The position numbers and the translations under genes were made by a program. Positions 41,937 through 57,463 of a stretch of 64,000 nucleotides of DNA are shown piece after piece. The DNA lies in the NCBI GenBank assembly GCA_015057825.1, contig SVDN01000002.1:16044-80043 (forward strand). Reading direction: 5' to 3'. Position 1 is the first letter of the stretch. Every line of letters begins with the position of its first letter. The notes below the pieces were generated by a model, which saw nothing but the letters and a program-made list of their open reading frames with translations, was not told where the DNA came from and did no database searches. This DNA is from Lachnospiraceae bacterium (lineage in GTDB: Bacteria > Bacillota > Clostridia > Lachnospirales > Lachnospiraceae).

Positions 41937-42170
41937 ATGATAATCAATTATAAAGGAAGGCAATTAGACTTTGATGAAGAGTTTTTAAAGATTTATAAAG
42001 AATTTACATTTAAAAACTTGGAAGAAGATATCAATTATGCGTTAAAGAATATGGAAATTGATAATCTTTCAGAAAAAGAAATAGTAAACGCATTGAAAAA
42101 AGAAGTTATCGGACAGATTGAACTACTAGATTGTCCGATACAGGAGTTTATTAAAAAGAGAGAAATATAA
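41937..42170 (+). CDS. Hypothetical protein (77 aa)
   Basis: ATG 7 nt after AAAGGAGA. The tracked longer ORF start lies inside the promoter module. Confidence 0.4.
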   Translation: MIINYKGRQLDFDEEFLKIYKEFTFKNLEEDINYALKNMEIDNLSEKEIVNALKKEVIGQIELLDCPIQEFIKKREI

Positions 42171-42171
42171 A

Positions 42172-42606: not shown

Positions 42607-42619
42607 GGAGAAAAAAGTT

Positions 42620-43648
42620 ATGAAAAAAGATAATTTAAACGAACAAAAGGACAACATGAAAGAAAAATCTACATTAAGACAAAAGCTGGATAAGATAGAC
42701 GAGTTTTTCTTTAAAAAGCATTTTAAATTGACATCAGTAATAATTGCTGCCATGTTTGCTGCGGTAATTATTGTGCTTGCTTACGGAAAATATGTTAACA
42801 ACAATATTCTTGAGGAAGAAAAAGTCCAGGGAATAATCGATGCGCGTGTACCACAGGAAGAAGGAGATCGTACCAGCAAACAGATAGTACACGGAACAAT
42901 TGAAGATACAGAAACCGGGCAGAAGATCACAACAAAAGACGGTCGTGTTTATTTAATTGAAAACGGCGCATTTTATCAGCTTGAAGCGGATGGCAGCAAA
43001 ACAAAGCTCACAAACGATTTAAGCCTGGTAACTGTATATGATGATAAAGGAGATAAAAACACCGTAGTTGACGGAAGACTTGTTGCAGAAGTAAAGGCTG
43101 AAGAAGAAACCACTACACCGGCTGCAGTACCTGCAGAACAAACAGTTGGTGAGGCAGTAGTTGCTCCGGAAGAACAGCAGGTAGATATCGGGGAAGATGT
43201 CGGAGTAACACAGCCGCCACAAACAGATCTTCCGTGGATCTATCCTTATCCGACACAGACTGGATATTATAAAAATGATGAAGTTGGATGGGCAAAAAAC
43301 GTGCCGCATGGAAACAATGTTGGATTTACAGCAGAGCAAATTGCAAGAATGGATGAGCTGGCATGGGCAGTAGCAACAAATGCAATTGATGAAGATGAGT
43401 TTGATGCACAAGTTGCAGCGCTTTTTGGTAAGGGCGAGCTAGCACCGGGCTTATGGGATGTTCAAACGAGTATATGGAGACCTGTCAAATTAACAGTAAC
43501 GGAAGTTCAAGAAAAAATTGCAACACAAGGATATTATTATGATTATGGGTATAACGAGGAGCAACCGGGATACGTGAAAGCAATAGTTTATTATGATGCT
43601 GGTACAGATACGGCATACCTTACGTTAGTTTCAGATTGGGGAGAATAA
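42620..43648 (+). CDS. Membrane-anchored extracellular protein
   Basis: Single TM (LTSVIIAAMFAAVIIVLAY), acidic/Pro-Thr linker, aromatic-rich C-terminal domain. Confidence 0.45.
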   Translation: MKKDNLNEQKDNMKEKSTLRQKLDKIDEFFFKKHFKLTSVIIAAMFAAVIIVLAYGKYVNNNILEEEKVQGIIDARVPQEEGDRTSKQIVHGTIEDTETGQKITTKDGRVYLIENGAFYQLEADGSKTKLTNDLSLVTVYDDKGDKNTVVDGRLVAEVKAEEETTTPAAVPAEQTVGEAVVAPEEQQVDIGEDVGVTQPPQTDLPWIYPYPTQTGYYKNDEVGWAKNVPHGNNVGFTAEQIARMDELAWAVATNAIDEDEFDAQVAALFGKGELAPGLWDVQTSIWRPVKLTVTEVQEKIATQGYYYDYGYNEEQPGYVKAIVYYDAGTDTAYLTLVSDWGE

Positions 43649-43652
43649 AACA

Positions 43653-45626
43653 ATGCTTATGGTTATAAAAGAATTGTCAAAATTTAAGGCTTTGATTGTT
43701 ATAGTTATGTTTTTTGCTGTCATTTTTGCCTTGCCGAGTGTAAAAACATATGCAGCACCGGGGTGGTATGCGGAAAATGCCTATGCCTATGATACAAAAG
43801 GAAATATAGCTATTCCGTCAAGTGCAAGTAAAGGTGGAACAGCTGCCACAAGGTTTGCAACTGTAGGATATAGAATTACTTTTGGAAGTTATAACCAGTA
43901 TTATGTGGATTTAGCAAAAAATAAGTATTATACAATGTATGGTGGATTACAAACACCTGAAATAACGGTAGCTGCAAGCCGCCAAGGAGTAACAGAAATT
44001 GCATATGCAGAAGAAGGAAATACTGCATTTAGCTTGTTCCTCGTTGATTATAGTACATTTCTTCGTGCCGTTGTCGGCAAATATGGTGCCGGATCTGATG
44101 CATATAATTATATTTCTGCACCTACAAGTGGAACAAGAACAGTAAGACTTTATCTTGATCCGATAATGACAAGTGCTCATATATCTGATTACGGCCAAAG
44201 TGTATGGCTTGCAAGTGGTCAAGCTCATGTTGATAGCAGATATCAGATTGCCTGGGATACCGGTAATTATTATGGCACAAGAGATGGAATGCTTTATTAT
44301 TGGGGAACATTAACAGGTAATTACAGTAATCAAGATATTTATTATTCATATGGCAAATACGTTGATATTTATATAGACTCAGGGACTCAGAAGTATACGC
44401 AAACAACTTATCATCAGAAAAAAAGTGCACAGACAGGTAAATATCTAAGCGCGTTTAAAACCGTCAAGGAAGATATTCAATATGGAGCAAGATACACTCC
44501 GGCATATACAACAGTTCCAACCGGCTATGTAAAAGGTGGCATAACCGCTGCATATGATGTAACAGGTGCACATACAAACTATGCTTACTACAACCCTATA
44601 AGCTATACGGTTAATTATCAGCCAAATGGTGCAACCGGTGGCTCCATGAACTATTCAACCTATTGGTATGACTGGTCTCAGCCTTTGAGTAAAAACCAAT
44701 ATGAAAGAAAGTATACGGTAAACTTTGATGGATCACTTGGAGAAGTTGAAACCGATAGTTTGACTGCTGTATATGATTTTAATGGTTGGAATCTAAGAAC
44801 AGACGGAAAAGGTCAAAGCTTTACGGACGGACAAAATATATTAAATTTGACTTCAACCAATAATGCAAAGATAGATATGTATGCACAGTGGACGCCAAAC
44901 GGAATAACACTTCCTAAGGCAGCAAGGGAAGGTGGTTATGAATTTCTTGGATGGTCAACTTCAAACGAAAAAACTGTTATCTATGACAAGGAAACAGAAG
45001 AGCTGCCAACATTAAAAGAAGGCGATTACTACATTCCAACAAAGAATGAAACATTGTACGCCGTATACTATGCTATACCGCCAACGGTATGGGCTCCGGA
45101 GAAAGAGCTTGATTATGGCGATGAAATGACAGAGTATTGGCTTTTATACGATTCAACCGCTGAAGACGCAACCGGAAAGGATATATCGGAAGATGTATTT
45201 ATTTCTGATTTAGGCGGCTTGCAGCTTAATATATATAATCCTTACAAATATTATGATGTAGAATATTGTGCCGTTGCTCCAAACGGTGCAAAAGGCTATT
45301 ATACGGCGAAAATAAGGGTGACATACAGATATGTACGCTACATATCGGCAGAATATATAGATACCCTGGAGCCGGATAGTAAATGGTTGACTGATCCTAA
45401 GCTTTATGCAGAACTTGTTGACTGCTTAAATACGGAAAGAGATCCGGTGCAGATTTGGGAGTTTTCAAATGAAGATAGGTTAAACATACAAAGATACATG
45501 ACAACACACGCACCTTCGAGAGAAGCCATTGATTGGTTTTTGGAAAACTACTCAGACAGAAAAGTTTATGAAGATTTAGGACAGGCTTATTTTAACGGAG
45601 TGAAAGGAAGTGAACTTGGATATTGA
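43653..45626 (+). CDS. Secreted surface protein with Listeria-Bacteroides-type repeat (adhesin candidate)
   Basis: Signal peptide ending VKTYA/AP. YTVNYQPNGATGG...FNGWN...MYAQW and GYEFLGWSTS...LYAVY fit the InlB-B/Flg_new repeat pattern. Confidence 0.55.
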   Translation: MLMVIKELSKFKALIVIVMFFAVIFALPSVKTYAAPGWYAENAYAYDTKGNIAIPSSASKGGTAATRFATVGYRITFGSYNQYYVDLAKNKYYTMYGGLQTPEITVAASRQGVTEIAYAEEGNTAFSLFLVDYSTFLRAVVGKYGAGSDAYNYISAPTSGTRTVRLYLDPIMTSAHISDYGQSVWLASGQAHVDSRYQIAWDTGNYYGTRDGMLYYWGTLTGNYSNQDIYYSYGKYVDIYIDSGTQKYTQTTYHQKKSAQTGKYLSAFKTVKEDIQYGARYTPAYTTVPTGYVKGGITAAYDVTGAHTNYAYYNPISYTVNYQPNGATGGSMNYSTYWYDWSQPLSKNQYERKYTVNFDGSLGEVETDSLTAVYDFNGWNLRTDGKGQSFTDGQNILNLTSTNNAKIDMYAQWTPNGITLPKAAREGGYEFLGWSTSNEKTVIYDKETEELPTLKEGDYYIPTKNETLYAVYYAIPPTVWAPEKELDYGDEMTEYWLLYDSTAEDATGKDISEDVFISDLGGLQLNIYNPYKYYDVEYCAVAPNGAKGYYTAKIRVTYRYVRYISAEYIDTLEPDSKWLTDPKLYAELVDCLNTERDPVQIWEFSNEDRLNIQRYMTTHAPSREAIDWFLENYSDRKVYEDLGQAYFNGVKGSELGY

Positions 45627-46057
45627 TGAACAAAGTTATACTGATAGGAAGACTTACGAGAGATCCTGATGTTAGATATACATCAGGGGAAGACGGTGTA
45701 TGCGTAGCACGTTTTTCTTTAGCTGTAGATCGCAGATATAAAAAAGATGGAGATGCACAGACAGCAGATTTTCCGTCTTGTGTTGCATTTAGAAAGACCG
45801 GCGAATTTATCGAAAAATACGCGAAAAAGGGAACAAAGCTCTGCATTGAAGGTCGTCTGCAGACCGGTTCTTATACGAATAAGGACGGTGTTAAAGTATA
45901 CACAACAGATGTTGTGGTTGAAAACTGCGAGTTTGCGGAAAGTAAAGTTGCAGCAGGTGGTAGCAGTGAGGAAGGTGCGCCGGAGCCAACTGTAGATTCG
46001 GATGGTTTTATGAATATACCGGATGGATTAGACGACGAAGGCTTGCCTTTTAACTAA
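45623..46057 (+). CDS. ssb: Single-stranded DNA-binding protein
   Basis: MNKVILIGRLTRDPDVRYT OB-fold N-terminus. Acidic tail DDEGLPFN. Confidence 0.9.
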   Translation: MMNKVILIGRLTRDPDVRYTSGEDGVCVARFSLAVDRRYKKDGDAQTADFPSCVAFRKTGEFIEKYAKKGTKLCIEGRLQTGSYTNKDGVKVYTTDVVVENCEFAESKVAAGGSSEEGAPEPTVDSDGFMNIPDGLDDEGLPFN

Positions 46058-46068
46058 GAGGTGAAAAA

Positions 46069-46443
46069 ATGCGTGCAGCACTAATGGGAATATGTTTTAT
46101 ATTTATCTTTGGCTTTAGCACCATAACACAGTGCGTAATAACGGATGTGGCTACCAGGTGTGATGAAGTTAAAATGACTTTTGACGATTCCGTAAGAGAC
46201 ACGATGCAAGCCATGCTTTGCACAAAAGCTTACTCTATAGACGAAATCGATGATTTCATGGCGGATTTTATCGAAACATTTATGTTTGAAAATAGTGCAA
46301 ACAGTAAGTTTAAAATTGAAGTTAGCAGCATCGATGCCGAGGCCGGCATTGCCAATGTACAGGTATCATCTTATTTTAAAGTAGCAAGTGGCAAATGGAA
46401 ACAAATTACTGTTGAAAATGCGGTTGTATTTAACCAATGGTAA
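46069..46443 (+). CDS. Small protein with N-terminal hydrophobic segment (pseudopilin-like?)
   Basis: MRAALMGICFIFIFGFSTI then a soluble domain. Located just upstream of the Tad-type ATPase. Confidence 0.35.
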   Translation: MRAALMGICFIFIFGFSTITQCVITDVATRCDEVKMTFDDSVRDTMQAMLCTKAYSIDEIDDFMADFIETFMFENSANSKFKIEVSSIDAEAGIANVQVSSYFKVASGKWKQITVENAVVFNQW

Positions 46444-46462
46444 ACAGAAAGGAAGTGAAAAA

Positions 46463-46651
46463 ATGGGACACTTATTTCATCAGTTCAGAGGTGTGTTTAT
46501 CGCTGTAATAATTGCAATTATCATTTTGGTCATGGCGTTAGCAGTTGGTGCTTGGTTCAAGAGTAATACCACAAAGCAGCTTAACAGCTTTGATGCTATT
46601 ATTGATGAGCAAATGCAAGAAGTTAATGCGTACAAAGAAACAGGAGAATAG
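46463..46651 (+). CDS. Small single-TM protein (62 aa)
   Basis: ATG after AAAGGAAGTGA. FRGVFIAVIIAIIILVMALAVGAWF. Confidence 0.35.
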   Translation: MGHLFHQFRGVFIAVIIAIIILVMALAVGAWFKSNTTKQLNSFDAIIDEQMQEVNAYKETGE

Positions 46652-46654
46652 GAA

Positions 46655-47689
46655 ATGACAAATATATTGGAAAATTTAGATCTATCCGAAATCGAAGAGT
46701 TTCTTGAAGACGAAAACGTAACAGACATTGATTGGAATGGCGAAGATCTGTGGACAGACAACATTGTGCTTGGCCGGGTAAAACAAGAAAAGAAGTTAAG
46801 CGCTGAGTTTGTTGAAGGGCTTACAACCAAAATAGGCAATTCGCAGAATAAAACCTTAAATAAGCATAATCCGGTTCTGGAAGCAGAATCGGATACTTTA
46901 AGGTTTTCCATACTTCATGAAGAAATTACAGGCGGCCTTAGAAGCGTTTCAATAAGAAAAACGCCGGCAACAATGAGACTTTCAAAAGAAATGCTTATTG
47001 AAACAGGGTATATAACAGAGCCGCTTTTTAATTTTTTTGAAAATGCAATAAAAGCGCATTGCACTATTGTTATATGTGGTCTTCCGGCAGTTGGAAAAAC
47101 AGAATTTTTAAAGCTTCTTACCAATACTATACCGCCTTATGAGAGGGTAATAACAATAGAAGATAGGAAGGAAATCCATTACAAGCAGATTAATCCGGGA
47201 AAGGATTGTGTAGAGGTAAAGATAAGTCCAACACTTGATTTTCCTTCTGCTATATCGTTTGCATTGAGCCATAATGCCAAGTGGACTATTCTTTCCGAAG
47301 CAAGAGGTGCTGAGGTAGAATATCTTATGAATAATCTTTCTTCCGGTACATTTTGCCTTACAACGCTACATACAAACGATGTAAGGAAGATCCCGGATAG
47401 GTTGGCTAATATGTTGCCGGGCGGTGAGGAACATACACGTTTTATAAATGACGTTTATGATTTTATTGATATTGGTGTTTTGATTACTTCAAAAATTCAA
47501 AACGGTAAAAGTATTACAAGACGTATCGAACAAGTCGGACTCTTTTCAAGAGAACACGGTCAAAACCAGGTTTCGATGATTTATGATGACAACAAATTTA
47601 TCGCGGAGAATTTATCGCCGGAGATCGTAAGAAAGTTTATGAAAGCCGGCATAAAAAACCCTTATGTTGCATCCAAAGGAGAAGATTAA
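46655..47689 (+). CDS. T2SS/T4P/T4SS-family secretion ATPase (CpaF/TadA/VirB11-like)
   Basis: Walker A ICGLPAVGKTEF. Walker B/Asp box TILSEARGAE. His box TTLHTN. 344 aa. Confidence 0.8.
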   Translation: MTNILENLDLSEIEEFLEDENVTDIDWNGEDLWTDNIVLGRVKQEKKLSAEFVEGLTTKIGNSQNKTLNKHNPVLEAESDTLRFSILHEEITGGLRSVSIRKTPATMRLSKEMLIETGYITEPLFNFFENAIKAHCTIVICGLPAVGKTEFLKLLTNTIPPYERVITIEDRKEIHYKQINPGKDCVEVKISPTLDFPSAISFALSHNAKWTILSEARGAEVEYLMNNLSSGTFCLTTLHTNDVRKIPDRLANMLPGGEEHTRFINDVYDFIDIGVLITSKIQNGKSITRRIEQVGLFSREHGQNQVSMIYDDNKFIAENLSPEIVRKFMKAGIKNPYVASKGED

Positions 47690-49164
47690 TGAATAAATTT
47701 ATTGCGAAGATTGAAAGTTTGGGTTATACGTTTTCGCCTGGAACACTTATATTAATTGCCGTAATAGTTGAGGCTTTTACAGTGGGAGTGTCTTTTCTTT
47801 ATTTGTTACACTTGCCATTTGCAATAGCTCTTATGGTTTTGGGAATATTGGTTGTTCCTTCGGTATATTACTCAAGAACCAGGTATAAATACGAAGAAAA
47901 TCGCTTTTCTGCGTTATGCACATATATGGAACAGATGTGTTATTCATTTCAGACTATGCCAAAAATTTACAATGCGTTAAAAGAAACATATACTATTTTA
48001 CCTTCCGGTGAAATGAAAGCAGCTGTTAGCGCCGCTATAAAGTATTTTGAAGTGGAAAACGGCACGTATGCTGATGCCTTGAACATCATTGAGTCACGTT
48101 TTTTGTGCAAAAAACTGGCTAAATTACATAGATTTTTTATAAAAATCGAAGAAGAGGGCGGCGATTATAAATACGCATTAGGACTACTGTTAACAGATAT
48201 ATTAAAGTGGCGTGAGCGTGTACAGCTTTACCAGCAGGAAAAGAAGACATTAAAGGTAGCTTATGTGCTTGCGATAATCTTTTCATCTATCGCATGCGCA
48301 TTTGCAACACTTCTTGCAGTTGTAGGAAAAAAAGAAGGAGATCTTCTTACGACATTCTTAGATATAACCGGTGTTCCGGTATATCAGATGATAGCCTTTG
48401 TATTTATAGCAGCGTGTATTATATCATTTTATTTTATAGAAAAACGATATACAAACAGTTGGATAGAGGATAAGAAATATACAAAGTATGAGCTTATTGA
48501 CTACGACATAAGTATTAATTATGACTATATATCCGATACACGGAAAATGCTAATTCCGGCGGTTGTAATAGCCGGCGGCTCAGTGATTTTATCATTACTT
48601 TTTACGCCACTATGTTTAATTGGTTTGATTCTGGCTATTCTATTAATTGCAACGCCAAGGATAAAATACCAGGGCGCAAGACAAAGAACTGTTTCGGAGC
48701 TTAAGGCGGCTTTTTCGGAGTGGCTTGTGGATCTTGAATTAAACTTACAATTTTATAATAACCACAAAGCAATTGAAAAGTCTTTGGATTCAGCCCCGGA
48801 AATTTTGAAAAAACCGATAAAACAACTAATATTGGATATTAATGATAACTTATCGGGAATAGAACCGTTTAATAACTTTCTTGGAGAGTTTGACATCGAA
48901 GAGGTTCGCTCATCGATGCGCATGGTCTATTCCATGAAAGATTTAAATTCGGAAAACACATCAGAACTTCTTTCAACGATTGTTGATAGGAACTATGTGC
49001 TTATGGATCAGACGGAAGCGGAAAAAAATAAAACGAAAATAAGCAATCTTAAAATGCTTATTTTAACGCCTGCAGGTTTTGGAATTTTTAAACTTTCCGC
49101 AGATTTAATGATCTTTGCTGCAACTTTCTTTAATGGAATGTCAGACGTTTCACAGTTTATGTAG
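47689..49164 (+). CDS. Polytopic membrane protein, possible TadB/TadC (GspF-type) platform
   Basis: Translationally coupled to the ATPase (TAATG). Alternating TM pairs and cytoplasmic helical regions. Family not verified. Confidence 0.4.
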   Translation: MNKFIAKIESLGYTFSPGTLILIAVIVEAFTVGVSFLYLLHLPFAIALMVLGILVVPSVYYSRTRYKYEENRFSALCTYMEQMCYSFQTMPKIYNALKETYTILPSGEMKAAVSAAIKYFEVENGTYADALNIIESRFLCKKLAKLHRFFIKIEEEGGDYKYALGLLLTDILKWRERVQLYQQEKKTLKVAYVLAIIFSSIACAFATLLAVVGKKEGDLLTTFLDITGVPVYQMIAFVFIAACIISFYFIEKRYTNSWIEDKKYTKYELIDYDISINYDYISDTRKMLIPAVVIAGGSVILSLLFTPLCLIGLILAILLIATPRIKYQGARQRTVSELKAAFSEWLVDLELNLQFYNNHKAIEKSLDSAPEILKKPIKQLILDINDNLSGIEPFNNFLGEFDIEEVRSSMRMVYSMKDLNSENTSELLSTIVDRNYVLMDQTEAEKNKTKISNLKMLILTPAGFGIFKLSADLMIFAATFFNGMSDVSQFM

Positions 49165-49173
49165 GGGGTTATT

Positions 49174-49269
49174 ATGCACAATTTATTTGAAGAGTTATCT
49201 GCGTTTATGTTTGTCCCGGTCATTGTTGCGGCAATCATTGTCTTTGCGAGAATAATGATGTCGGTATAG
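49174..49269 (+). CDS. 31-aa hydrophobic peptide (pilin-like candidate)
   Basis: MHNLFEELSAFMFVPVIVAAIIVFARIMMSV. RBS GGGGG 6 nt upstream. Confidence 0.3.
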   Translation: MHNLFEELSAFMFVPVIVAAIIVFARIMMSV

Positions 49270-49280
49270 AGAGGTAGTTT

Positions 49281-49418
49281 ATGTCATATTTATATGAACA
49301 CTTTAGCAAGTTTATAGTAACCATAATTGGCGCTGTAGGTGTAATAATCGGAGCCATAATAATTTATTTGAATTTGGATTCGATTTTAAGCTTCTTTACG
49401 AAAGGATTTTTAGGATAA
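49281..49418 (+). CDS. 45-aa hydrophobic peptide
   Basis: MSYLYEHFSKFIVTIIGAVGVIIGAIIIYL... RBS GAGAGG. Stop overlaps the next start (TAATG). Confidence 0.3.
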   Translation: MSYLYEHFSKFIVTIIGAVGVIIGAIIIYLNLDSILSFFTKGFLG

Positions 49419-49756
49419 TGAGAAACATAATTGAAGGATTTATTATTATTCTTTTTATTGGTTTTATTGCGTATGCATCTCTAGGTTTCATCAATATGAA
49501 TAACCAAACAGCAGATGCAAGGGGCTTTTTAGAGTCTGCAGTAACGGATATAGAAAGAAGCGGGTTTTCTGATACGGTAATAGGCGCCTGGCAAGATAAA
49601 GCACAAGATTGCGGATATGAGCTTGTAGCGTCTGATGCATCAACGACAATTATTGATAAAAAGAAACATTGTATTGAAATACAGCTTAAATATACAGCAA
49701 ACAATCCATTCTTTAGAATTAAGGAACAAAGCACGATTAAGGAATATGCGAGGTAG
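49418..49756 (+). CDS. N-terminally anchored small protein (pseudopilin-like)
   Basis: MRNIIEGFIIILFIGFIAYASLGF then a soluble domain. In the Tad-like cluster. Confidence 0.4.
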   Translation: MRNIIEGFIIILFIGFIAYASLGFINMNNQTADARGFLESAVTDIERSGFSDTVIGAWQDKAQDCGYELVASDASTTIIDKKKHCIEIQLKYTANNPFFRIKEQSTIKEYAR

Positions 49757-49759
49757 AAT

Positions 49760-50551
49760 ATGGGCAAGTTTATAAAAGAGTATAGTGCCGTTGCAGTCGC
49801 AGTTATTGTTTCAATATTTATATTGATAGCGGCAACCAACGCATCAAAGTCTGTTAGCAACGTATCTGAAAAACAGACGGCTGCGCTTGAAAACAATGCT
49901 GCGGCTTGGCAGGTTGGTGATTCTGCAGATTTTGAAACTGTAGGAGAACTTACAGACGTAGAACAAACACAGTTAGATGCAATGCAAGCCAAGTTGGATG
50001 CAATGCAAGAGCAAATAGATAACTTTGAAGGATTTGACTTGGATAAAGCTTATCCTATTGGTTCAATTTACATTACTATGTCTTCAGCAGATCCCGCAGA
50101 TCTTATGGGTGGAACCTGGGAAAGAATGGAAGACAGAGAGTTAATTGGAGCCGGTAATCTATATACTGTTGGAAGCGAGCAAGGTAGCAGCTCCGTTAAG
50201 TTGGCAGCTACGCAGATTCCTTCTTTATCGGTAAGTGGCAGTACCAATAGTGCCGGAGCACATACTCATGTTATTGGTATGGGACCTGCCAAATGGAATT
50301 ATGGCAGTCAAGCCTGGTATTCTGATACTGTAGGGCCACCAAACCAACTTTTTGCGCCATATGGATATGGTATGGGAAGTGGTGGTCCAACAACACACGC
50401 AGGTTATTATAACCAATCAAATGGTACAAGTACATATTCTTCCGGGACTCATACACACACAGTAACAGCAAAATATACAAACAACAATCAAACATCGGTC
50501 AGTGTAATGGATCCAACCATAGCAGTTTACATGTGGAAGCGTGTTGCCTAG
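49760..50551 (+). CDS. Membrane/pilin-anchored protein with phage tail-collar-like receptor-binding domain, copy 1
   Basis: N-terminus MGKFIKEYSAVAVAVIV (G-x4-EY + hydrophobic helix). C-terminal YPIGSIYITMSSADPADLMGGTWERMEDRELIG and HxH motifs (AHTHV, THTHT), as in Gram-positive phage tail fibre/collar proteins. Confidence 0.6.
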   Translation: MGKFIKEYSAVAVAVIVSIFILIAATNASKSVSNVSEKQTAALENNAAAWQVGDSADFETVGELTDVEQTQLDAMQAKLDAMQEQIDNFEGFDLDKAYPIGSIYITMSSADPADLMGGTWERMEDRELIGAGNLYTVGSEQGSSSVKLAATQIPSLSVSGSTNSAGAHTHVIGMGPAKWNYGSQAWYSDTVGPPNQLFAPYGYGMGSGGPTTHAGYYNQSNGTSTYSSGTHTHTVTAKYTNNNQTSVSVMDPTIAVYMWKRVA

Positions 50552-50635
50552 ATTATATAGTCGCTAGTTAAAAAAGAATGTAGTATTCTTGTTGATTCTT
50601 TAATATAATAAAAGAAAAAATATATTTTCGAAAGG
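49760..50635. repeat. Duplicated segment, copy 1 (gene + downstream 65 bp)
   Basis: Near-identical to 51098..51975. The first ~130 bp are more diverged, then only a few substitutions. The ~20 bp after each stop codon differ. Confidence 0.85.
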
Positions 50636-50649
50636 AACAAGATACAAAT

Positions 50650-50826
50650 ATGCTCGTAGAAAATACAAAAGAAAATAGGGAATTACAGGAAGCGGTAGCA
50701 ACGCTAGCAATTGAAGATATGTTTGTAGAGGAAGCATTTTTGAATGAATTAATGCAAGTTTCAGAAGGAAAAAAAACGACGGAAGAGCTTAGGAGAGAGG
50801 TTATTAAAAAGTATGCAAGACGTTAA
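50650..50826 (+). CDS. VbhA-like antitoxin of a class I Fic module (58 aa)
   Basis: MLVENTKENRELQEAVATLAIEDMF... has TLAIED, resembling the (S/T)xxxE(G/N) inhibitory motif. Overlaps the fic start by 14 nt. Confidence 0.5.
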   Translation: MLVENTKENRELQEAVATLAIEDMFVEEAFLNELMQVSEGKKTTEELRREVIKKYARR

Positions 50827-51097
50827 ATACTGTTATCCTAACTCAGATGTTTTAAAAAACAAGTTAAACATTAGAAACTCAGAAGATTTATATGAGGCAG
50901 AAAAAGAACTGACATTAATTCGAATAAAGGAGCTTCAAGCGCGTCCGCTGATGGGAAAATTTGACTTTCAGCATTTAAAAAATATCCATAAATATATATT
51001 TCAAGATTTATATGAATGGGCTGGTGAGGTCAGAACTGTTGAAATTGGAAAAGGCAATCTTTTTTGTACAACAGCATGTATAAACGAATACGCTAAA
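50813..51097 (+). pseudogene. 5' fragment of a class I fic (FicT/VbhT-like) gene, fused in frame to tail-collar copy 2
   Basis: YCYPNSDVLKNKLNIRN...IHKYIFQDLYEWAGEVRTVEIGKG is the Fic N-terminal region. The ORF never reaches an HPFxxGNGR motif. Confidence 0.6.
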
Positions 51098-51889
51098 ATG
51101 GGCAAGTTTATTAAAGAGTACAGTGCTGTTGCAGTCGCAGTTATTGTGGCAATAATAATATTGATAGCGGCAGGTAACGCATCAAACTCTGTTCGTAACT
51201 TATCTGAGAAGCAGACAGCAGCACTTGAAAAAAATGCTGCGGCTTGGCAGGTTGGGGATTCTGCAGATTTTGAAACTGTAGGAGAACTTACAGACGTAGA
51301 ACAAACACAGTTAGATGCAATGCAAGCCAAGTTGGATGCAATGCAAGAGCAAATAGATAACTTTGAAGGATTTGACTTGGATAAAGCTTATCCTATTGGT
51401 TCAATTTACATTACTATGTCTTCAGCAGATCCCGCAGATCTTATGGGTGGAACCTGGGAAAGAATGGAAGACAGAGAGTTAATTGGAGCCGGTAATCTAT
51501 ATACTGTTGGAAGCGAGCAAGGTAGCAGCTCCGTTAAGTTGGCAGCTACGCAGATTCCTTCTTTATCGGTAAGTGGCAGTACCAATAGTGCCGGAGCACA
51601 TACTCATGTTATTGGTATGGGACCTGCCAAATGGAATTATGGCAGTCAAGCCTGGTATTCTGATACTGTAGGGCCACCAAACCAACTTTTTGCGCCATAT
51701 GGATATGGTATGGGAAGTGGTGGTCCAACAACACACGCAGGTTATTATAACCAATCAAATGGTACAAGTACATATTCTTCCGGGACTCATACACATACAG
51801 TAACAGCAAAATATACAAACAACAATCAAACATCGGTCAGTGTTATGGATCCAACCATAGCAGTTTATATGTGGCAGCGTGTTGCCTAG
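51098..51889 (+). CDS. Tail-collar-like protein, copy 2 (may be translated alone or as a Fic-N fusion)
   Basis: Same 263-aa architecture as 49760..50551. The internal ATG 51098 aligns with the copy 1 start. Confidence 0.55.
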   Translation: MGKFIKEYSAVAVAVIVAIIILIAAGNASNSVRNLSEKQTAALEKNAAAWQVGDSADFETVGELTDVEQTQLDAMQAKLDAMQEQIDNFEGFDLDKAYPIGSIYITMSSADPADLMGGTWERMEDRELIGAGNLYTVGSEQGSSSVKLAATQIPSLSVSGSTNSAGAHTHVIGMGPAKWNYGSQAWYSDTVGPPNQLFAPYGYGMGSGGPTTHAGYYNQSNGTSTYSSGTHTHTVTAKYTNNNQTSVSVMDPTIAVYMWQRVA

Positions 51890-51975
51890 AAGTAGTTCAA
51901 CCGACATCTTAAAAAAGAATATAGTATTCTTGTTGATTCTTTAATATAATAAAAGATAAGATATATTTTCGAAAG
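51098..51975. repeat. Duplicated segment, copy 2
   Basis: See copy 1. Confidence 0.85.
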
Positions 51976-52056
51976 AAAGCGTGTCGATGTAATTACGAAA
52001 GAAGAAGCTTTGCGCATAATGCCAAAAACTATAGAAAGGGAAAAAGGTTCTTATAT

Positions 52057-52305
52057 ATGAACGAAAACACTAGAACAAGCAATGTCGAAGAAATGTTGCC
52101 TTCTTTTTTAAAAGAATCTATTGATAAGTTTGTAGAAGGAAAAATGAAAAGCGAAGCCGACAAAAGCTATATGCAGTTTGACTGTGATTATTGCGAGCTG
52201 CAAAGTGATATAAATGTTGCGGAAGTGGAAGGAATTATTTCATCGGAAGAAGCTTGGAATTTGAGAAAAAAATATTTAGGAATTAATAAGGGAACAATAG
52301 ATTGA
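52057..52305 (+). CDS. Hypothetical 82-aa protein coupled to a HipA-like gene
   Basis: Stop overlaps the next start (ATGA). Acidic. Confidence 0.45.
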   Translation: MNENTRTSNVEEMLPSFLKESIDKFVEGKMKSEADKSYMQFDCDYCELQSDINVAEVEGIISSEEAWNLRKKYLGINKGTID

Positions 52306-53216
52306 TGATTGATTTTTCAAAATGTGAACATAAAAATAAAACATATTCGGGTGCAAATGGTAGTAAGATTTCGGTTGTTTATGATAATGGGTTGTATATG
52401 CTTAAGTTTCCGTCAAGGGCACCAAGAAATGATGATATAAGCTATAGTAACAGCTGCTTCTCTGAATATCTAGGTTGCAAGATATTTAAGGAAATTGGTA
52501 TTCCTGTTCAAGACGTAGTTTTGGGAACATATACAACAAATAAAGGTAACGAGAAAATAGTTGTAGCTTGTAAGGATTTTGCCGTAAATGGCAAAGTATT
52601 ACAGGATTTCGGATCTTTAAAAAATCAAATTGTCGATTCTGAAAACAATGGATATGGAACGGAGCTAGAAGATATTAAGGAAACATTTGAGTTACAAACC
52701 ATTGTAGATCCTATAGAATTATCAAAAAGATTTTGGGATATGTTTATTGTTGATGCTTTAATTGGAAATTGGGATAGACATAACGGAAATTGGGGATTTC
52801 TTTACGACTCTATGGCTGACAAAAACGAGTTAGCACCTGTCTTTGATTGCGGAAGTAGTTTATATCCACAGTTGGATGAAGAAAAAATGAAGCATATCCT
52901 TGTGGATGGTAAGGAAATAAAAGCAAGAGTATATAATATCCCTACATCTGCAATAAGAATAAATAGCAAAAGAATTAACTATTATAATTTCATTCTTTCC
53001 GGAGAGGAAATGGGTTGTAATGATGCATTAAAACGTATTGTTCCTAATATTGATACAGACAAGATTTTTGATATTATTGACAATATGCCAATTATAGGTG
53101 ATGTACATAAAGATTTTTATAAGCAGATGTTAATACAAAGATATAATTTGATATTGGTAAAGTCGTATAAGAACTTAAACAAACTTTACAATATTAAGAA
53201 ACCAAAAAGATTATAG
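52302..53216 (+). CDS. HipA-like kinase family protein (short form)
   Basis: IGNWDRHNGNWGFLYD and LAPVFDCGSSL correspond to the HipA_C catalytic and Mg loops. Confidence 0.65.
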   Translation: MMIDFSKCEHKNKTYSGANGSKISVVYDNGLYMLKFPSRAPRNDDISYSNSCFSEYLGCKIFKEIGIPVQDVVLGTYTTNKGNEKIVVACKDFAVNGKVLQDFGSLKNQIVDSENNGYGTELEDIKETFELQTIVDPIELSKRFWDMFIVDALIGNWDRHNGNWGFLYDSMADKNELAPVFDCGSSLYPQLDEEKMKHILVDGKEIKARVYNIPTSAIRINSKRINYYNFILSGEEMGCNDALKRIVPNIDTDKIFDIIDNMPIIGDVHKDFYKQMLIQRYNLILVKSYKNLNKLYNIKKPKRL

Positions 53217-53220
53217 GTAT

Positions 53221-53565
53221 ATGGAAGAAAAGAAATTAAGTAAGAGACAAGAAAAAGTAAACGTTTTACAGCCTATATTATGTCCGTTTTGCGGCGGTTT
53301 GATTAGCATTACAGAATTATCATTTGGTTGTCAAAATTGCAATAGTTTTTTTGACAGATCCAAAAACGATGTTAGCCAGGTTTTAAACCGGGCCTTAACA
53401 GAAGAAGAAATTTCGGATCTATTCAGCATCAGGGGATTAAAGGTTGTAGTTGATAATTCACTTAAATATGAAGCATATAATTTTAAGGCAAATACACGTT
53501 TTGAGAATCCTGAGATAGAAACCATACCGCTAAAAAAACAAAAGCGAAGACACTTTAGATTTTAA
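53221..53565 (+). CDS. Zinc-ribbon protein
   Basis: CPFCGG...CQNC four-Cys ribbon. 114 aa. Confidence 0.45.
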   Translation: MEEKKLSKRQEKVNVLQPILCPFCGGLISITELSFGCQNCNSFFDRSKNDVSQVLNRALTEEEISDLFSIRGLKVVVDNSLKYEAYNFKANTRFENPEIETIPLKKQKRRHFRF

Positions 53566-53615
53566 AAAATATTGTCGCGCGCGCACACCTTAGTGCGTGC
53601 GTTTTTTTGTACAAT
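53564..53615 (+). promoter_or_regulatory. Conserved ICE promoter module copy 6
   Basis: aaaaaatATTGTCGCGCGCGCACACCTTAG. TACAAT at 53610, 32 bp after TTGTCG (53572). Confidence 0.6.
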
Positions 53616-53640
53616 TAAGGAAAAGAAAGGAAGTGAAATA

Positions 53641-54153
53641 ATGCCGGAAAATTTTATTGTATTACAAAACCCGGAAGATTTAGTTGACTGGGCAAACAAA
53701 GGAAGTGCAGCAAGCATATCTTTGGAAGAAGCACAAATCATGTTTGATTACGCAAAGAGTAAAGAATTGGATCTTGCGGTTAATACCTCAAATCAGTCTC
53801 TTTATTTAATCGACCAGGACGAGATTTATGCGACAAACTATGACGAAGTGGTGGATTATATGTGCCAGCTAAATTTTGACACATTAAACACTTTAAAAGA
53901 AAGTATGAGCACTGCTTCTGAAGAAGAAAAGATTCTTAACAACATGTTTTGGAAAACAAAAAATGGTATAACGCTTGCAGCTATTATAGAATCTAAACCG
54001 ATTGTAGTTTTTGAAGGCGAAATGGATGAGAAGATAAAGGAAAGTGCAAAAGAGCAAATAGAAGCATCTTACGTAACACAAAATATGCGCGAAGAGAGAA
54101 AGCGACAAGAAATTGAAAGAGAAGAAAATAAGAAAAGGAGTGCGAAACTATGA
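53641..54153 (+). CDS. Hypothetical protein (170 aa)
   Basis: ATG after AAAGGAAGTGA. The tracked longer start lies in the promoter module. Confidence 0.45.
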   Translation: MPENFIVLQNPEDLVDWANKGSAASISLEEAQIMFDYAKSKELDLAVNTSNQSLYLIDQDEIYATNYDEVVDYMCQLNFDTLNTLKESMSTASEEEKILNNMFWKTKNGITLAAIIESKPIVVFEGEMDEKIKESAKEQIEASYVTQNMREERKRQEIEREENKKRSAKL

Positions 54154-54260
54154 CAGATTTAGAAAGATTTGCGAAAAACCTGGGAGTTGATTTTACGGAG
54201 TGCGACTTGGATGAAGAGCCTGCAGAGGTTTTGGAGTATATTCCGGGCGGTGAAAACGAA
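54150..54260 (+). CDS. Possible 36-aa acidic peptide
   Basis: Overlapping start/stop with both neighbours (ATGA junctions). Confidence 0.25.
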
Positions 54261-54499
54261 TGAAAAATGAATATGAATTTATTTTAGAATCCGGAGAAAA
54301 GGTTGTTTTAACTCTTAAGGATATGGAAGAAATTTCGGAAAAATATAAAATCTGCAATATTGCGGAGTGGCTTAAAACATACAAAGATATTAATTCTCCA
54401 AAGAAAGCAATGGAAATTGCAGAAAAAATGAAGTCAATAATCAATAAATACAAAGTAACTCGTCAAATGGCTTATGAAGCAGCCAAGGCGATTAAATAG
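54260..54499 (+). CDS. Hypothetical protein (79 aa)
   Basis: Translationally coupled ORF. No motif. Confidence 0.4.
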   Translation: MKNEYEFILESGEKVVLTLKDMEEISEKYKICNIAEWLKTYKDINSPKKAMEIAEKMKSIINKYKVTRQMAYEAAKAIK

Positions 54500-54509
54500 G
54501 GGTGATATC

Positions 54510-55481
54510 ATGGCAAAACTTACAAAGACAAGGGAAGAAATTCTGAAATCCTTTAAAAATCTTCTATCGAATGATAACGCTGATCTAAAATGGCAACAGA
54601 CTTTTCGAGGGACAGGTCTTCCTTATAATGCTGTTACCGGAAAATCTTATAGGGGTACAAATCGAATCGTATTAAATATGCGTTGTTTTTTCAGGGGATG
54701 GAGCGACAATCGCTTTGTGACTTTTAACCAGGCAAAAAAAGCGGGATGGAAAATAAAAGCAGAATCTAAAGCAACACCGATAGAGTTTTGGCAGTGGTAT
54801 GACATAAAAGAAAAGAAATACTTGGATTACGAAGTTGTTCACCGCCTTATAAAAGAAGGAAGGGAAGAAAAAGATTTTAGATTATACGGAAATACATATT
54901 ATGTTTTTAATGCGTCACAGGTGGAAGGAATTCCAGAATTAAAGGTTGAAAATGAATTAGACGTTCCGGTAAATGAAGTCATTGACAAGCTTTCATTAAA
55001 TATGCACGTGCCTATTATCTATGATGAAAGAGGGCGTTGTTACTATAGCCCCCAAAAAGATGAAATACATTCGCCAAAAGTAGGCGACTTTATCGGTGAA
55101 CATGAGCTTAATTCAACACTTTTACATGAGCTTGCACATTCAACCGGACACCCAAGCCGCTTGAATAGAGATATTGTAAATGCGTTTGGAACAGCATCAT
55201 ATGCAAAAGAAGAGCTGCGTGCAGAGATTGCATCAGCAATTTTATCTTCTTATTTGCCAATGGAGTTTTCCGAAAAACATATGCAAAATCACAGCGCCTA
55301 TGTGTATAGTTGGATGCAGGCAATCGACAAAGATCCAAATGAGCTTTTTAGGGCTATTAATGATGCGGAAAGTATTTCAGATTATATGCTTGAAAAAGCA
55401 GAAATAAAAGAGCTTAAATTTGAAATTGCAGAAGTTAAAGAAACTACAAACACATTTAAGCCGAAGAAAAAAGCGATGTGA
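54510..55481 (+). CDS. ardC: ArdC-like antirestriction protein (ssDNA-binding N-domain + zincin metalloprotease)
   Basis: SYRGTNRIVL and FNQAKKAGWKIK (DUF1738-type N-domain). HELAHSTGH zinc motif. Confidence 0.8.
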   Translation: MAKLTKTREEILKSFKNLLSNDNADLKWQQTFRGTGLPYNAVTGKSYRGTNRIVLNMRCFFRGWSDNRFVTFNQAKKAGWKIKAESKATPIEFWQWYDIKEKKYLDYEVVHRLIKEGREEKDFRLYGNTYYVFNASQVEGIPELKVENELDVPVNEVIDKLSLNMHVPIIYDERGRCYYSPQKDEIHSPKVGDFIGEHELNSTLLHELAHSTGHPSRLNRDIVNAFGTASYAKEELRAEIASAILSSYLPMEFSEKHMQNHSAYVYSWMQAIDKDPNELFRAINDAESISDYMLEKAEIKELKFEIAEVKETTNTFKPKKKAM

Positions 55482-55494
55482 GGAAGTGATATAT

Positions 55495-56283
55495 ATGAAC
55501 AATGAAACGCGACTTAAGATTAAAAAAGCGATTGAAAATTATTATAATGTTGTTAATTACGATCAATCTTTTTTTAGCGGAGTATGTAAGATAAACACGG
55601 TTGATATTAAGAACATAGAAGAAAAGAATGACAGCTATGTTGTTGATGTTAAACATACTGTTGGACAGATTACTTATGATGCCAGGGGAATCGACATTGG
55701 TGGACCAAATGACTATAAAGAAACTATGGATTCCTATATCAAGCTTGATAAACAGTCTTTAGATATAATTGAAGATTACGAAAAATATGCTATAGAAATG
55801 GCCAAATGGAGACAAGAAAAATTTAAATATGATTTAGAGTATTCGTTAAACGAAAAGATAACACAATCTCCTTTTGATGATTTTACTGGCTGGTTGATTG
55901 TTTCTCCGGGAACATATCCTAGAGTGTGTAAAGATGATATAAATTTCGACAAAATAGAAGAAATACTAGAAGGTAATATTGAAGTTAGACGGTTTTTAAA
56001 GAATGATCCAGGAGTTGTTTTTTTGATGAATGCGGATAGGGAAGAAAAGGATTTTCTTAAAAATCGCGCGATAATTGATGATGATAACAACGTAAAAGAA
56101 GTTATTAAGGGAACCTTTATTATTGCATCAGCCGGAGAAGACGGCATTATTCATCCTCTAAGTAAAGAAAAATGTGAGGAATACAAAACAATGTTTTATT
56201 TCCCGGAAAGATTTTTTAAAGATGAAAAGCACAACATCATTGTTGATCCGTATAAGCCGGCATCAAACAAAAAAAGATTGTAG
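55495..56283 (+). CDS. Hypothetical protein (262 aa)
   Basis: ATG after GAGGAAGTGA. No motif recognised. Confidence 0.45.
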   Translation: MNNETRLKIKKAIENYYNVVNYDQSFFSGVCKINTVDIKNIEEKNDSYVVDVKHTVGQITYDARGIDIGGPNDYKETMDSYIKLDKQSLDIIEDYEKYAIEMAKWRQEKFKYDLEYSLNEKITQSPFDDFTGWLIVSPGTYPRVCKDDINFDKIEEILEGNIEVRRFLKNDPGVVFLMNADREEKDFLKNRAIIDDDNNVKEVIKGTFIIASAGEDGIIHPLSKEKCEEYKTMFYFPERFFKDEKHNIIVDPYKPASNKKRL

Positions 56284-56294
56284 GGGGATATTGA

Positions 56295-57044
56295 ATGGGT
56301 AAAAGATTATTTGTTGATATGGACGGCACGCTCGCAGAGTTTAAGCCTACTTCAAAATTGGAAGATCTTTATGAGAAAGGTTATTTTTTAAACCTGCAGC
56401 CATTGCCAAATGTGATTGATACAATCAAAAAAATCAAAGAAGAAAATCCGGATATTGAAGTATTTATTTTAAGCGCGGTTCTTACGGACAGTAAATATGC
56501 GCTGCAGGAAAAAAACGAATGGCTGGATAAGTATATACCGGAGATCGATGATGAGCATAGAATCTTTCCGCCCTGTGGAGAGGATAAAAGCAAATATATT
56601 GAAGGTGGCGTAACGATGGACGATTATCTTTTAGATGACTACACGTTTAACCTTAATAGCTGGGATCCACCGGGACATGGCATTAAGTTATTAAACGGTA
56701 TTAATTTTACTAAGAAGACTTGGGCTAAAAGCAGGGTGGACTTTGAAAGCGATAAACTAAAAGACAGTATTGTTTCTATTATCCGGGATGATGTTGTTAT
56801 TGTTGACATGGTTGAAAACATAGCCGAAAAACCTTCATTAAAAGAAGTTGTTTTCAGAGCAGAAAAAAGAGCGCAGCAAGAGTTTGCTCATGCGAAAGCT
56901 GTATATGATGGAAGTCAGGAATCAGATCTTAGACTCATGAGATATCAATATGTAGCTAACGCACTTAATGATATAGTCGTAAGCAGCCATTTAACAAATG
57001 AATATAACAGTTGGAAAAAGCAACAAAAAGCCAAAAGGAAGTAA
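56295..57044 (+). CDS. HAD-superfamily 5'(3')-deoxyribonucleotidase-like protein (NT5C type)
   Basis: N-terminal LFVDMDGTLAEF (DxDxT) and overall NT5C-like length. Confidence 0.6.
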   Translation: MGKRLFVDMDGTLAEFKPTSKLEDLYEKGYFLNLQPLPNVIDTIKKIKEENPDIEVFILSAVLTDSKYALQEKNEWLDKYIPEIDDEHRIFPPCGEDKSKYIEGGVTMDDYLLDDYTFNLNSWDPPGHGIKLLNGINFTKKTWAKSRVDFESDKLKDSIVSIIRDDVVIVDMVENIAEKPSLKEVVFRAEKRAQQEFAHAKAVYDGSQESDLRLMRYQYVANALNDIVVSSHLTNEYNSWKKQQKAKRK

Positions 57045-57050
57045 AAATAG

Positions 57051-57083
57051 AGAAACCCAGGCACTCGCAATGCCTGGGTTTCT
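57051..57083 (+). terminator. Terminator-like hairpin at the ICE right end
   Basis: AGAAACCCAGGCA...TGCCTGGGTTTCT, 13-bp stem. Confidence 0.6.
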
Positions 57084-57246
57084 TGTTGCTGTTAACATCT
57101 TATGTTATTATTTCTTTTGCCTAACCACATTATAACAAACAAAATTAATTTATCAAATATAGAATTTGATATAACATGTGAAAAAGTTTTTGGCCAAATA
57201 GCGGTTTTAAAAAGCAACGATTTTATCACGTTTTCAGCCACTGTTT

Positions 57247-57309
57247 TTGACGAATTTTTTGACGAGTATTTGACGAATTTTGAAGATAAATTCGTTTGAA
57301 TTTCGTCAA
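57247..57309. repeat. Cluster of TTGACGA(A/G)T repeats (candidate arm-type sites), right end
   Basis: ttgacgaat 57247, ttgacgagt 57259, ttgacgaat 57270 (direct), and inverted ttcgtcaa at 57302-57309. Confidence 0.5.
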
Positions 57310-57411
57310 ATTACGAACATTAGTTTCTGATACTTTCGGATACTTTCCAATACTTTTTGATAATAAAATATCCACTGTTTATGCGGCTTTGAGACCTGTA
57401 CAACAGTGGAT

Positions 57412-57463
57412 ATAAAAAATGCGCCTCCAGGGGCTCGAACCCTGCACACCCTGATTAAGAGTC
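57412..57463. repeat. attR: att direct repeat (right), overlapping the intact tRNA-Lys 3' part
   Basis: Identical 52-mer to 13002..13053. Confidence 0.85.

Follow-up and report, generated by a model that had tools for sequence, protein, structure and literature searches.

We analysed a stretch of 64,000 nucleotides (nt) from an uncultured Lachnospiraceae bacterium (GenBank assembly GCA_015057825.1, contig SVDN01000002.1, positions 16,044 to 80,043; hereafter the window), which contains an integrated conjugative element. Within this element a fic toxin gene breaks off after 95 codons and continues in frame into the second of two tandem copies of a gene for an anchored fibre protein, here called P. 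We favour, with a probability of roughly 0.65, the interpretation that this is the scar of a rearrangement in which fic became joined to a second P allele and the two P genes were subsequently homogenised. The events would have started from a class I FicTA-type module (a vbhA-like gene followed by fic) downstream of one P allele. In a single non-homologous join, codon 95 of fic would then have been linked to the ATG of another P allele that had already diverged, most likely one from a related element or from a P copy in tandem or resident in the same cell. In the window the catalytic two thirds of fic are missing, the antitoxin gene is an orphan, and two P genes lie in tandem, 1338 nt apart. 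Later gene conversion would have made a 539-nt centre identical, which covers the coiled coil, the variable insert and the greater part of the receptor-binding domain, with the ends keeping their allelic divergence. The protein itself would form a pilin-like trimeric fibre that is anchored by its N-terminus and carries a receptor-binding tip of the phage type, encoded within a type IV filament-like gene set.

Two copies of P with an identical centre

The two copies (P1 and P2) are tandem direct repeats of 792 nt each, offset by 1338 nt, with zero indels and 96.8% identity overall (coordinates of all features are collected in Table 1). The 25 nucleotide differences are unevenly spread. Nucleotides 1 to 159 contain 21 of them (87% identity), nt 160 to 698 contain none, and the remaining four lie in the last 94 nt (nt 699 to 792). 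When 25 differences were placed at random, 0 of 200,000 permutations matched the identical run of 539 nt. A stretch of the copy-2-type 5' end reads, for example, GATAGCGGCAGGTAACGCATCAAAC. At the protein level eight residues differ (S18A, F20I, T26G, K30N, S33R, V35L, N45K and K260Q), the last of which is the K-to-Q change near the C-terminus that had been pointed out in an initial annotation of this DNA. P1 consists of an N-terminal anchor (MG/KFIKEY followed by a transmembrane helix), a coiled coil and then a gp10_C receptor-binding-type domain. The deposited version of copy 1 (MBE5968813.1, 242 amino acids versus 263) begins at a later codon and has thereby lost most of the N-terminal anchor helix.

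The repeat unit extends beyond the gene by approximately 86 nt. Unrelated stretches follow the stop codons, 16 nt in copy 1 and 19 nt in copy 2, where the initial annotation had estimated about 20 bp, and each of these is followed by one of two similar spacers, I1 and I2. The homology of the left unit ends with I1 at a junction that we call J1, and that of the right unit starts exactly at ATG 51098 (junction J2, 51097/51098, plus or minus a base or two), with a non-repeated block between the two junctions. Pairwise comparison of the copies thus upheld the description of the repeat, its substitutions and the intervening genes with small corrections only. The statement that divergence is confined to the anchor region did not survive, as the last 94 nt and the downstream spacer have diverged too.

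Loss of the catalytic core from fic

The 358-codon open reading frame (ORF) that ends in P2 begins as a Fic protein. Its residues 1 to 95 match positions 10 to 99 of the NCBIfam VbhT model (E = 1.6e-21) as well as Escherichia coli Fic (E = 1.3e-19), and screening 5.8 billion proteins gave over 100 Fic proteins, mostly 240 to 290 amino acids in length, that align solely to these residues, with 58% to 79% identity. Among the latter, intact Fic proteins of 250 to 285 amino acids reach 79% identity to the truncated gene (fic'). The intact homologues run on as ...GKGNLFCTTACI(x)(x)YA(K/E)(S/T)VF..., and HPFREGNGR follows approximately 30 residues further; the ORF in the window reads ...TTACINEYAK at the junction and then MGKFIKEY, and the DNA alignment is concordant. 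The FIC signature HPFx[D/E]GNGRxxR is absent from the 358-codon ORF, and tblastn with six intact relatives as queries found no remnant of the 3' part of this fic in the window. The in-frame truncation before the catalytic core, running into copy 2, that the initial annotation had described is therefore confirmed at residue 95, and the truncated toxin is certainly inactive.

A different mechanism for the junction had also been suggested, namely microhomology between the end of the gene upstream of copy 1 and the end of the fic fragment (IKEYAR versus INEYAK). A crossover at this site was rejected: ACINEYAK is native Fic sequence in intact homologues, the similarity is weak, being equalled by 0.6% of random 25-mers, and an in-register crossover would have retained TAGAAT and the ribosome-binding site, both of which are missing. 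That the parent carried a 4- to 5-nt microhomology at J2, such as TAAAA, is our guess.

The 58-codon ORF in front of fic' overlaps the fic ATG (50813) by 14 nt. The encoded protein scores 18.6 bits (E = 0.0019) against Pfam VbhA (PF18495), under the gathering cut-off of 25.9. Three contigs (L020, L021 and L022) have a 57-amino-acid gene in the same position, overlapping an intact fic of 258 to 262 amino acids, and in L020 the match to Pfam VbhA is weak as well. At the position of the inhibitory helix the window protein reads T17-L-A-I-E21-D22, compared with the consensus [S/T]xxxE[G/N]; the Ser/Thr and the Glu are kept and the last position is Asp. The antitoxins adjoining intact Fic genes in L020 and L021 read S-M-A-I-E-D or -E, and TxxxED looks like a family variant. 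Judged by its sequence, the antitoxin gene is intact and orphaned, which agrees with the initial annotation in that a VbhA-like gene stands here without a cognate toxin. The deposited annotation names neither the fic remnant nor the antitoxin.

The two P copies differ in their translation signals. The Shine-Dalgarno duplex energy is -7.8 kcal/mol for P1 and -0.9 for the ATG of P2, compared with -5.7 to -9.8 for every gene of the operon-like run and a median of -2.8 kcal/mol over all ATGs in the window. P1, with a ribosome-binding site of its own, is probably an expressed and working gene. With no Shine-Dalgarno sequence at its ATG, P2 would therefore be translatable only as a Fic(1-95)::P chimera from the fic ATG, a product that the initial annotation had put forward as one of two possible outcomes. 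Lysines preceding the anchor helix suggest an N-in topology, which would place the Fic piece of the chimera in the cytoplasm, and the chimera appears topologically possible. The 97-residue extension may block pilin-like assembly, as the neighbouring proteins are near-leaderless and the window contains no prepilin-peptidase motif. No notable promoter-like or terminator-like site was found between the copies, the spacers have no significant RNA structure (z-scores +0.5 and -1.6), and no Rfam family was found in positions 46000 to 54500, where one sub-threshold hit is a chance match.

The junctions recur in independent assemblies

Junction J2, represented by a 41-nt spanning sequence and the exact 358-amino-acid protein, recurs in the contigs of 11 separate samples: JGI 3300023687, 3300021310, 3300021311, 3300021319, 3300019371 and 3300019373, ENA ERZ27247045, ERZ27247021, ERZ27247020 and ERZ27247007, and Logan SRR7030482. 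These contigs come from three pipelines (JGI, MEGAHIT for ENA, and Logan). The database entry MBE5968814.1 also carries the fusion, yet it is probably from the source assembly of the window itself. A mis-joined or chimeric contig, or a repeat made by the assembler, might be suspected because every source is a short-read metagenome assembly and many contigs break within the repeat. Many of them stop, however, at points where a genuine repeat is expected to interrupt a de Bruijn graph; one such end, 51397, lies k = 141 beyond the last site that tells the copies apart. The assembly graph contains a loop of 3' end, spacer, vbhA, fic' and 5' end, and placing it linearly requires at least two passes through the shared centre. 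Both J1 and J2 are spanned in at least 11 samples and by three pipelines. With the junctions present in at least 11 independent metagenome assemblies, it is therefore exceedingly improbable that the arrangement is an artefact.

Old ends, a young centre and a single-copy relative

Synonymous divergence (dS) and its ratio to nonsynonymous divergence (dN/dS), estimated by the Nei-Gojobori method, vary sharply along the gene. Codons 1 to 53 have a dS of 0.44 and a dN/dS of 0.17, codons 54 to 232 have 0 changes over 118 synonymous sites, and codons 233 to 263 have a dS of 0.16 and a dN/dS of 0.08. These values indicate that the ends of the copies are old alleles that diverged under purifying selection and that the tract shared in the centre is young. 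The fic stub retains 54 of the 55 columns that are invariant across 10 intact homologues; therefore either the ends diverged long before the join took place, or selection acts on the stub.

A relative with a single copy of P was found in a contig from Logan SRR27107216 (L002). Its layout is the 112-amino-acid gene, P (253 amino acids), a spacer and the 82-amino-acid gene, with no vbhA or fic, and it lends no support to the view of the initial annotation that a duplication of P had replaced the core of a resident toxin. Of the 21 sites in nt 1 to 159 that distinguish the copies, L002 agrees with copy 1 at 18 and with copy 2 at two, and carries a third base at one. Its states at the four 3' coding differences and its flank are copy-2-like, and its 16-nt post-stop stretch is copy-1-like. 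From these mosaic states it follows that the window has a continuous block of one type, which starts in the centre of copy 1 and reaches that of copy 2, embedded in L002-type flanks. The segment that the window has in excess of the L002 layout consists of the 3' end of P, the spacer, vbhA, fic' and the 5' end of P.

The limits of the identical tract are not the same everywhere. In JGI 3300023687 nt 159 of copy 2 shows the copy-1 base, in Logan SRR7030482 nt 699 of copy 2 does so, and in contig L036 (SRR7030480) a 3' end and post-stop stretch of the P1 type are followed by an I2-type spacer and the 82-amino-acid gene. The tract limits therefore vary between populations, with copy 2 adopting the copy-1 state, and the best reading of this variation is gene conversion between the copies. 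The homogenised centre by gene conversion at which the initial annotation had hinted is in this respect borne out by the identical 539 nt and the shifting tract limits. Polymorphisms of the centre between samples always occur at equivalent positions of both copies, a pattern that could reflect concerted evolution or an assembler consensus. Such shared polymorphisms (50266/51604, 50354/51692 and 50365/51703) were rejected as proof of concerted evolution, as assemblers thread one consensus through both copies.

Searches for further arrangements of P gave few results. Protein-guided scans and a degenerate 50-nt DNA pattern returned no P relatives in GTDB genome contigs or JGI metagenomes, the PLSDB plasmids contained no P relative, and the secretion ATPase encoded upstream of P, used as a query in the contig scan, retrieved only an unrelated Bdellovibrionales match. 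Contigs with an identical 82-amino-acid neighbour showed only the fused arrangement or started inside the repeat, and none of them carried a stand-alone copy-2-type allele.

Alternative histories

The pattern of divergence is also what decides against a recent tandem duplication within one element, as the initial annotation had it, in which the new copy would have landed in fic and its 5' anchor would then have diverged rapidly. Tandem direct copies that are 96.8% identical, and fully so over 539 nt, would be expected from such an event. The dS of 0.44 and 0.16 at the ends, set against 0 changes at 118 central synonymous sites, would not: 12.5 of the 21 differences at the 5' end are synonymous (Nei-Gojobori), which together with the low dN/dS indicates that the alleles separated long ago and stayed under purifying selection, and divergence also extends to the 3' end, the post-stop stretch and the spacer. 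A recent duplication of P, spacer, vbhA and fic' moreover predicts an intact vbhA-fic pair after copy 2, where an L002-type flank is found instead, and we regard this history as very unlikely. An old duplication within the lineage, with concerted evolution of the centre and edges that alone evaded conversion, is the main alternative; homogenisation normally fails to reach the margins of repeats that convert each other. It implies selection on the chimera, which would be a functional adhesin isoform with the Fic stub acting as a leader or as a handle for VbhA binding. Several observations are in keeping with this: fic' meets P2 in frame and precisely at its ATG, the start of fic overlaps the end of the vbhA-like ORF (such overlaps commonly couple translation), the stub has kept nearly all invariant positions, the anchor region of P2 has a dN/dS of 0.17, and the inferred N-in topology tolerates a cytoplasmic N-terminal extension. 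However, the fusion occurs in one near-clonal set (two samples differ by 5 mismatches in 21 kb, and the protein cluster has 4 members), no second protein combining Fic and gp10_C was found among 591 matches from the 5.8 billion sequences, the extension would probably block assembly for the reasons given above, and the single-copy relative L002 exists. An old duplication of this kind thus seems unlikely, although it deserves some weight.

Programmed variation of the adhesin, in which copy 2 would serve as a cassette, silent or alternative, much as in pilE/pilS conversion or the PilV shufflon, would make sense of tandem copies of which the second lacks translation signals of its own, of conversion-tract limits that differ between populations, and of a hypervariable insert (amino acids 171 to 230) that is wholly replaced in L002. 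We consider it highly improbable, as both copies hold the same insert and thus store no diversity, the repeats are direct and the longest inverted pair in positions 47000 to 54500 is only 30 nt with 70% complementarity, no recombinase was found among the neighbouring ORFs scanned, and there is just one extra copy. In a related scenario, to which we assign a low probability, the tandem P genes would be maintained as tip adhesins of a type IV filament of the element, the chimera would be made from the start site of the toxin-antitoxin module and would still undergo insertion or processing, and receptor-binding segments swapped by conversion would form a small, renewable repertoire of recipient specificities.

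The join of fic to a second P allele followed by homogenisation has its own difficulties. A random join would not be expected to fall in frame and precisely on a start codon. No stand-alone gene with a copy-2-type 5' end was found in the searches of contigs and proteins, and no intact fic more than 79% identical to fic' was found either. L002 is itself a mosaic by its P1-type post-stop stretch and could be a secondary pop-out product rather than ancestral, and therefore it does not tell which arrangement arose first. In the short-read assemblies, which are the only kind available here, the 539-nt centre is unphased and the merging of bubbles may slightly inflate its identity; the loop itself could be present as one unit or as several. 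The old in-lineage duplication discussed above, with its implied selection on the chimera, also counts on this side.

P is related to phage fibre tips and sits in a filament-like gene set

Both copies match Pfam Gp10_C (PF21939) with 68.1 bits against a cut-off of 27, over positions 2 to 139 of the 139 in the profile. A profile built from 50 homologues retrieves the C-terminal domain of T4 gp10 from the PDB (E = 6.9e-14), and Foldseek returns 2fkk and 5iv5 at probability 1.0, with low TM-scores as the model is elongated and of medium confidence. The AlphaFold model of P (mean predicted local distance difference test score, pLDDT, of 66) has a helix at residues 2 to 47, a second helix at 66 to 90, a beta domain and a low-confidence insert at 178 to 221; helix 66 to 90 can be read as a coiled-coil stalk. 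The closest phage relatives, at approximately 30% identity, are the "putative antireceptor" proteins of Lactobacillus delbrueckii phages. Pfam Collar (PF07484) was not matched, Gp10_C being the sole Pfam match of both copies at E <= 0.01, and the label "tail-collar-like" used in the initial annotation was thus a loose term for a related fibre-tip fold. The hypervariable insert of P (amino acids 171 to 230, approximately 50270 to 50450) lies between the motifs AGAHTH and G(T/A)HTHTV and is exchanged in L002 (positions 1762 to 1902) for an unrelated sequence of different length, as is typical of receptor-binding modules. The contexts of two distant gp10_C homologues (P0129 and P0179) were inspected as well and were uninformative for conjugation.

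At the other end, the N-terminus of P, MG/KFIKEY followed by a hydrophobic helix of 20 residues, fits G/xxxxEY with Glu at +5; the leader is only "MG", and Pfam N_methyl is not matched. Four gp10_C homologues bear canonical type IV pilin N-termini (PF07963). The genes upstream of P1 include a secretion ATPase and a polytopic membrane protein that resembles a T2SSF platform (Table 1). The latter belongs to a family with 589 representative clusters, in which 8 of 38 aligned members match Pfam T2SSF (best E = 3.2e-5); the window protein does not. A distant relative (contig L037) keeps the order of ATPase, platform, a gene of approximately 46 amino acids, one of approximately 120 amino acids and a next gene, with a platform that is 30% identical. 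The 46-amino-acid gene of L037 stands at the position of the 45-codon ORF of the window, which is probably a real gene and a candidate for the major filament subunit. The small proteins start with M-x(1-2)-h-h-E followed by a transmembrane segment and are near-leaderless, with MSYLYEHF, MRNIIEGF and MGKFIKEY in the window and MEELIEQY and MRSVLEAS in L037. No prepilin peptidase motif (A24-type GxGD) was found in any ORF of the window, and a host-encoded enzyme outside the window is possible. We infer that the element encodes a type IV filament-like apparatus with P as its adhesin, which probably serves to contact recipient cells. Searches of the literature gave no published account of a Fic::gp10_C fusion, nor of such a filament module in conjugative elements of Gram-positive bacteria.

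The host element

The element is approximately 44.4 kb in size and has a tRNA-Lys gene as its target, as judged from the direct repeat at its ends, the right copy of which sits within tRNA-Lys(ctt) (57419 to 57493, minus strand). Its transfer genes encode RepA_N, Toprim, a MobA/VirD2 relaxase, VirD4, VirB4, PrgI/VirB3, an NlpC/P60-M23 hydrolase, SSB and ArdC. The proteins of the window are identical to entries MBE5968760 to MBE5968827 of an NCBI metagenome-assembled genome, and close relatives are labelled Parasporobacterium sp.

Toxin-type genes are abundant in the element. An intact, distant Fic protein (Pfam Fic E = 1.3e-17) adjoins a HipA-like kinase at 23745 to 25698, a second Fic/DOC protein is encoded at 15726 to 16421 (minus strand), and a PIN protein and a RelB-like gene are present as well (28457 to 28867 and 41563 to 41802). 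A tRNA-Arg(cct) gene (12858 to 12931) lies immediately beyond the left end of the element. The start of the window contains mnmE and mnmG (1672 to 4954), which places the element within approximately 10 to 55 kb of genes commonly found beside the origin of chromosome replication.

Table 1. Features of the conjugative element discussed in the text, in window coordinates.
Feature	Position	Strand	Basis and remarks
Integrated conjugative element	13002..57463	.	Bounded by a 52-nt direct repeat (13002-13053 / 57412-57463); contains the two P copies and fic'
Tyrosine integrase	13145-14254	-	Left end of the element
Small ORFs near the ATPase	46069-46443; 46418-46651		Part of the filament-like set 46069-50551
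T2SSE/VirB11/TadA-family secretion ATPase	46655..47689	+	Pfam T2SSE E = 2.9e-13; NCBIfam VirB11 and TadA-family matches below cut-off
491-amino-acid polytopic membrane protein, divergent T2SSF-like platform	47689..49164	+	T2SSF matches of family members
45-codon ORF, pilin-like hydrophobic N-terminus (MSYLYEHF...)	49281..49418	+	Not called in the JGI contig; Shine-Dalgarno -9.4 kcal/mol
112-amino-acid gene upstream of copy 1, N-terminus MRNIIEGF plus transmembrane segment, ending ...TIKEYAR	49418..49756	+	126-amino-acid counterpart in L037
Copy 1 (P1), 263 amino acids	49760..50551	+	Pfam Gp10_C E = 1.9e-18; own Shine-Dalgarno sequence (GAGG)
Homogenised central tract, 539 nt	49919..50457 (copy 1) = 51257-51795 (copy 2)	+	Identity of the copies
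Spacer I1, 70 nt	50568..50637	+	94% identical to I2; unit homology stops at ~50637 (junction J1, 50637/50638)
Non-repeated block, 460 nt	50638..51097	+	From 12 nt upstream of vbhA through fic codon 95; absent from L002
VbhA-like antitoxin gene, 58 amino acids	50650..50826	+	Weak Pfam VbhA match; position before fic; orphan
fic', class I (FicT/VbhT-like) fic gene cut off after codon 95	50813..51097	+	Profile and homologue matches; no catalytic motif
Chimeric ORF Fic(1-95)::P2, 358 codons	50813..51889	+	Deposited as hypothetical protein MBE5968814.1
Copy 2 (P2), 263 codons	51098..51889	+	Without Shine-Dalgarno sequence before its ATG
Spacer I2, 70 nt	51909..51978	+	Followed by flank common to the single-copy relative L002
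82-amino-acid gene and HipA_C-like kinase gene	52057..53216	+	Directly after copy 2; downstream neighbours of the single-copy gene in L002

Relation to known systems and implications

FicTA/VbhTA modules are typical cargo of conjugative elements (PMC5675462). As in VbhT-VbhA of the Bartonella plasmid pVbh and in YeFicTA, a small antitoxin gene overlaps the start of fic, which in those modules has approximately 260 codons; unlike them, the window retains only residues 1 to 95 of the toxin, the antitoxin motif reads TxxxED and the VbhA score is below the gathering threshold. Orphan antitoxins are likewise common on conjugative plasmids, and four of them, with a proposed "anti-addiction" role, are known from pVbh (PMC5675462). 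The antitoxin described here resembles them in being an intact gene without a cognate toxin in a conjugative element that has other toxin-type genes, and differs in that the origin of the orphan is visible, the toxin having been truncated by a rearrangement. VbhT itself combines a FIC and a BID domain that were brought together by terminal reassortment (PMC5675462). There too a Fic gene of a conjugative element was joined by rearrangement to an unrelated segment, but VbhT has a complete FIC domain and gained a C-terminal secretion signal, whereas here the FIC core was lost and the partner is a complete membrane-anchored fibre.

For P, the closest functional analogue is PilV, the minor-pilin adhesin of the type IV pili of IncI plasmids such as R64 and TP114, where a shufflon varies the protein (PMC9045228, PMC12857230). 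With their thin pili, the IncI plasmids resemble the element described here in carrying, next to a type IV secretion system, a set of filament genes that includes an adhesin with a variable receptor-binding end. In contrast to PilV, P belongs to a Gram-positive host and has a gp10_C-type tip, its variation arises by allelic or cassette replacement and direct-repeat conversion rather than Rci-driven inversion, and neither a classical N-methylation motif nor a prepilin peptidase was detected. A recent review states that Gram-positive conjugation systems encode no conjugative pili (PMC12857230). With phage gp10_C tips (T4 gp10, PDB 2FKK, and those of phages LL-Ku, c5 and Ld3) P shares a C-terminal Gp10_C region of 170 residues, an HxH-flanked insert and a preceding coiled coil; it differs in having a pilin-like helix anchor and in being located in a conjugative transfer region and not in a phage. 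The homogenisation of tandem paralogues by gene conversion is a general phenomenon. The P copies show its usual marks, namely an identical core, diverged edges and tract limits that vary between populations, but unlike the usual case the units probably began as different alleles.

The chimera of a Fic stub and gp10_C is unique among 591 homologues and restricted to one nearly clonal element, and it is best regarded as a lineage-specific rearrangement, real and well resolved, but of modest general interest. For annotation, this means that MBE5968814.1 represents neither a new domain architecture nor a Fic protein. The locus offers an example of a toxin-antitoxin module on a mobile element that was killed by rearrangement instead of point mutation, leaving an orphan antitoxin. 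It would likewise exemplify how illegitimate recombination between related elements can yield tandem adhesin genes and chimeric ORFs, with conversion then homogenising the receptor-binding part, and it bears in this way on the evolution of recipient-recognition proteins in conjugative elements. The gene set around P may have the wider significance. Found together in a Lachnospiraceae conjugative element, the secretion ATPase, the T2SSF-like platform, the pilin-like proteins with almost no leader and the fibre with its phage-type tip hint that mating-pair formation in Gram-positive bacteria of the gut and rumen may be mediated by filaments.

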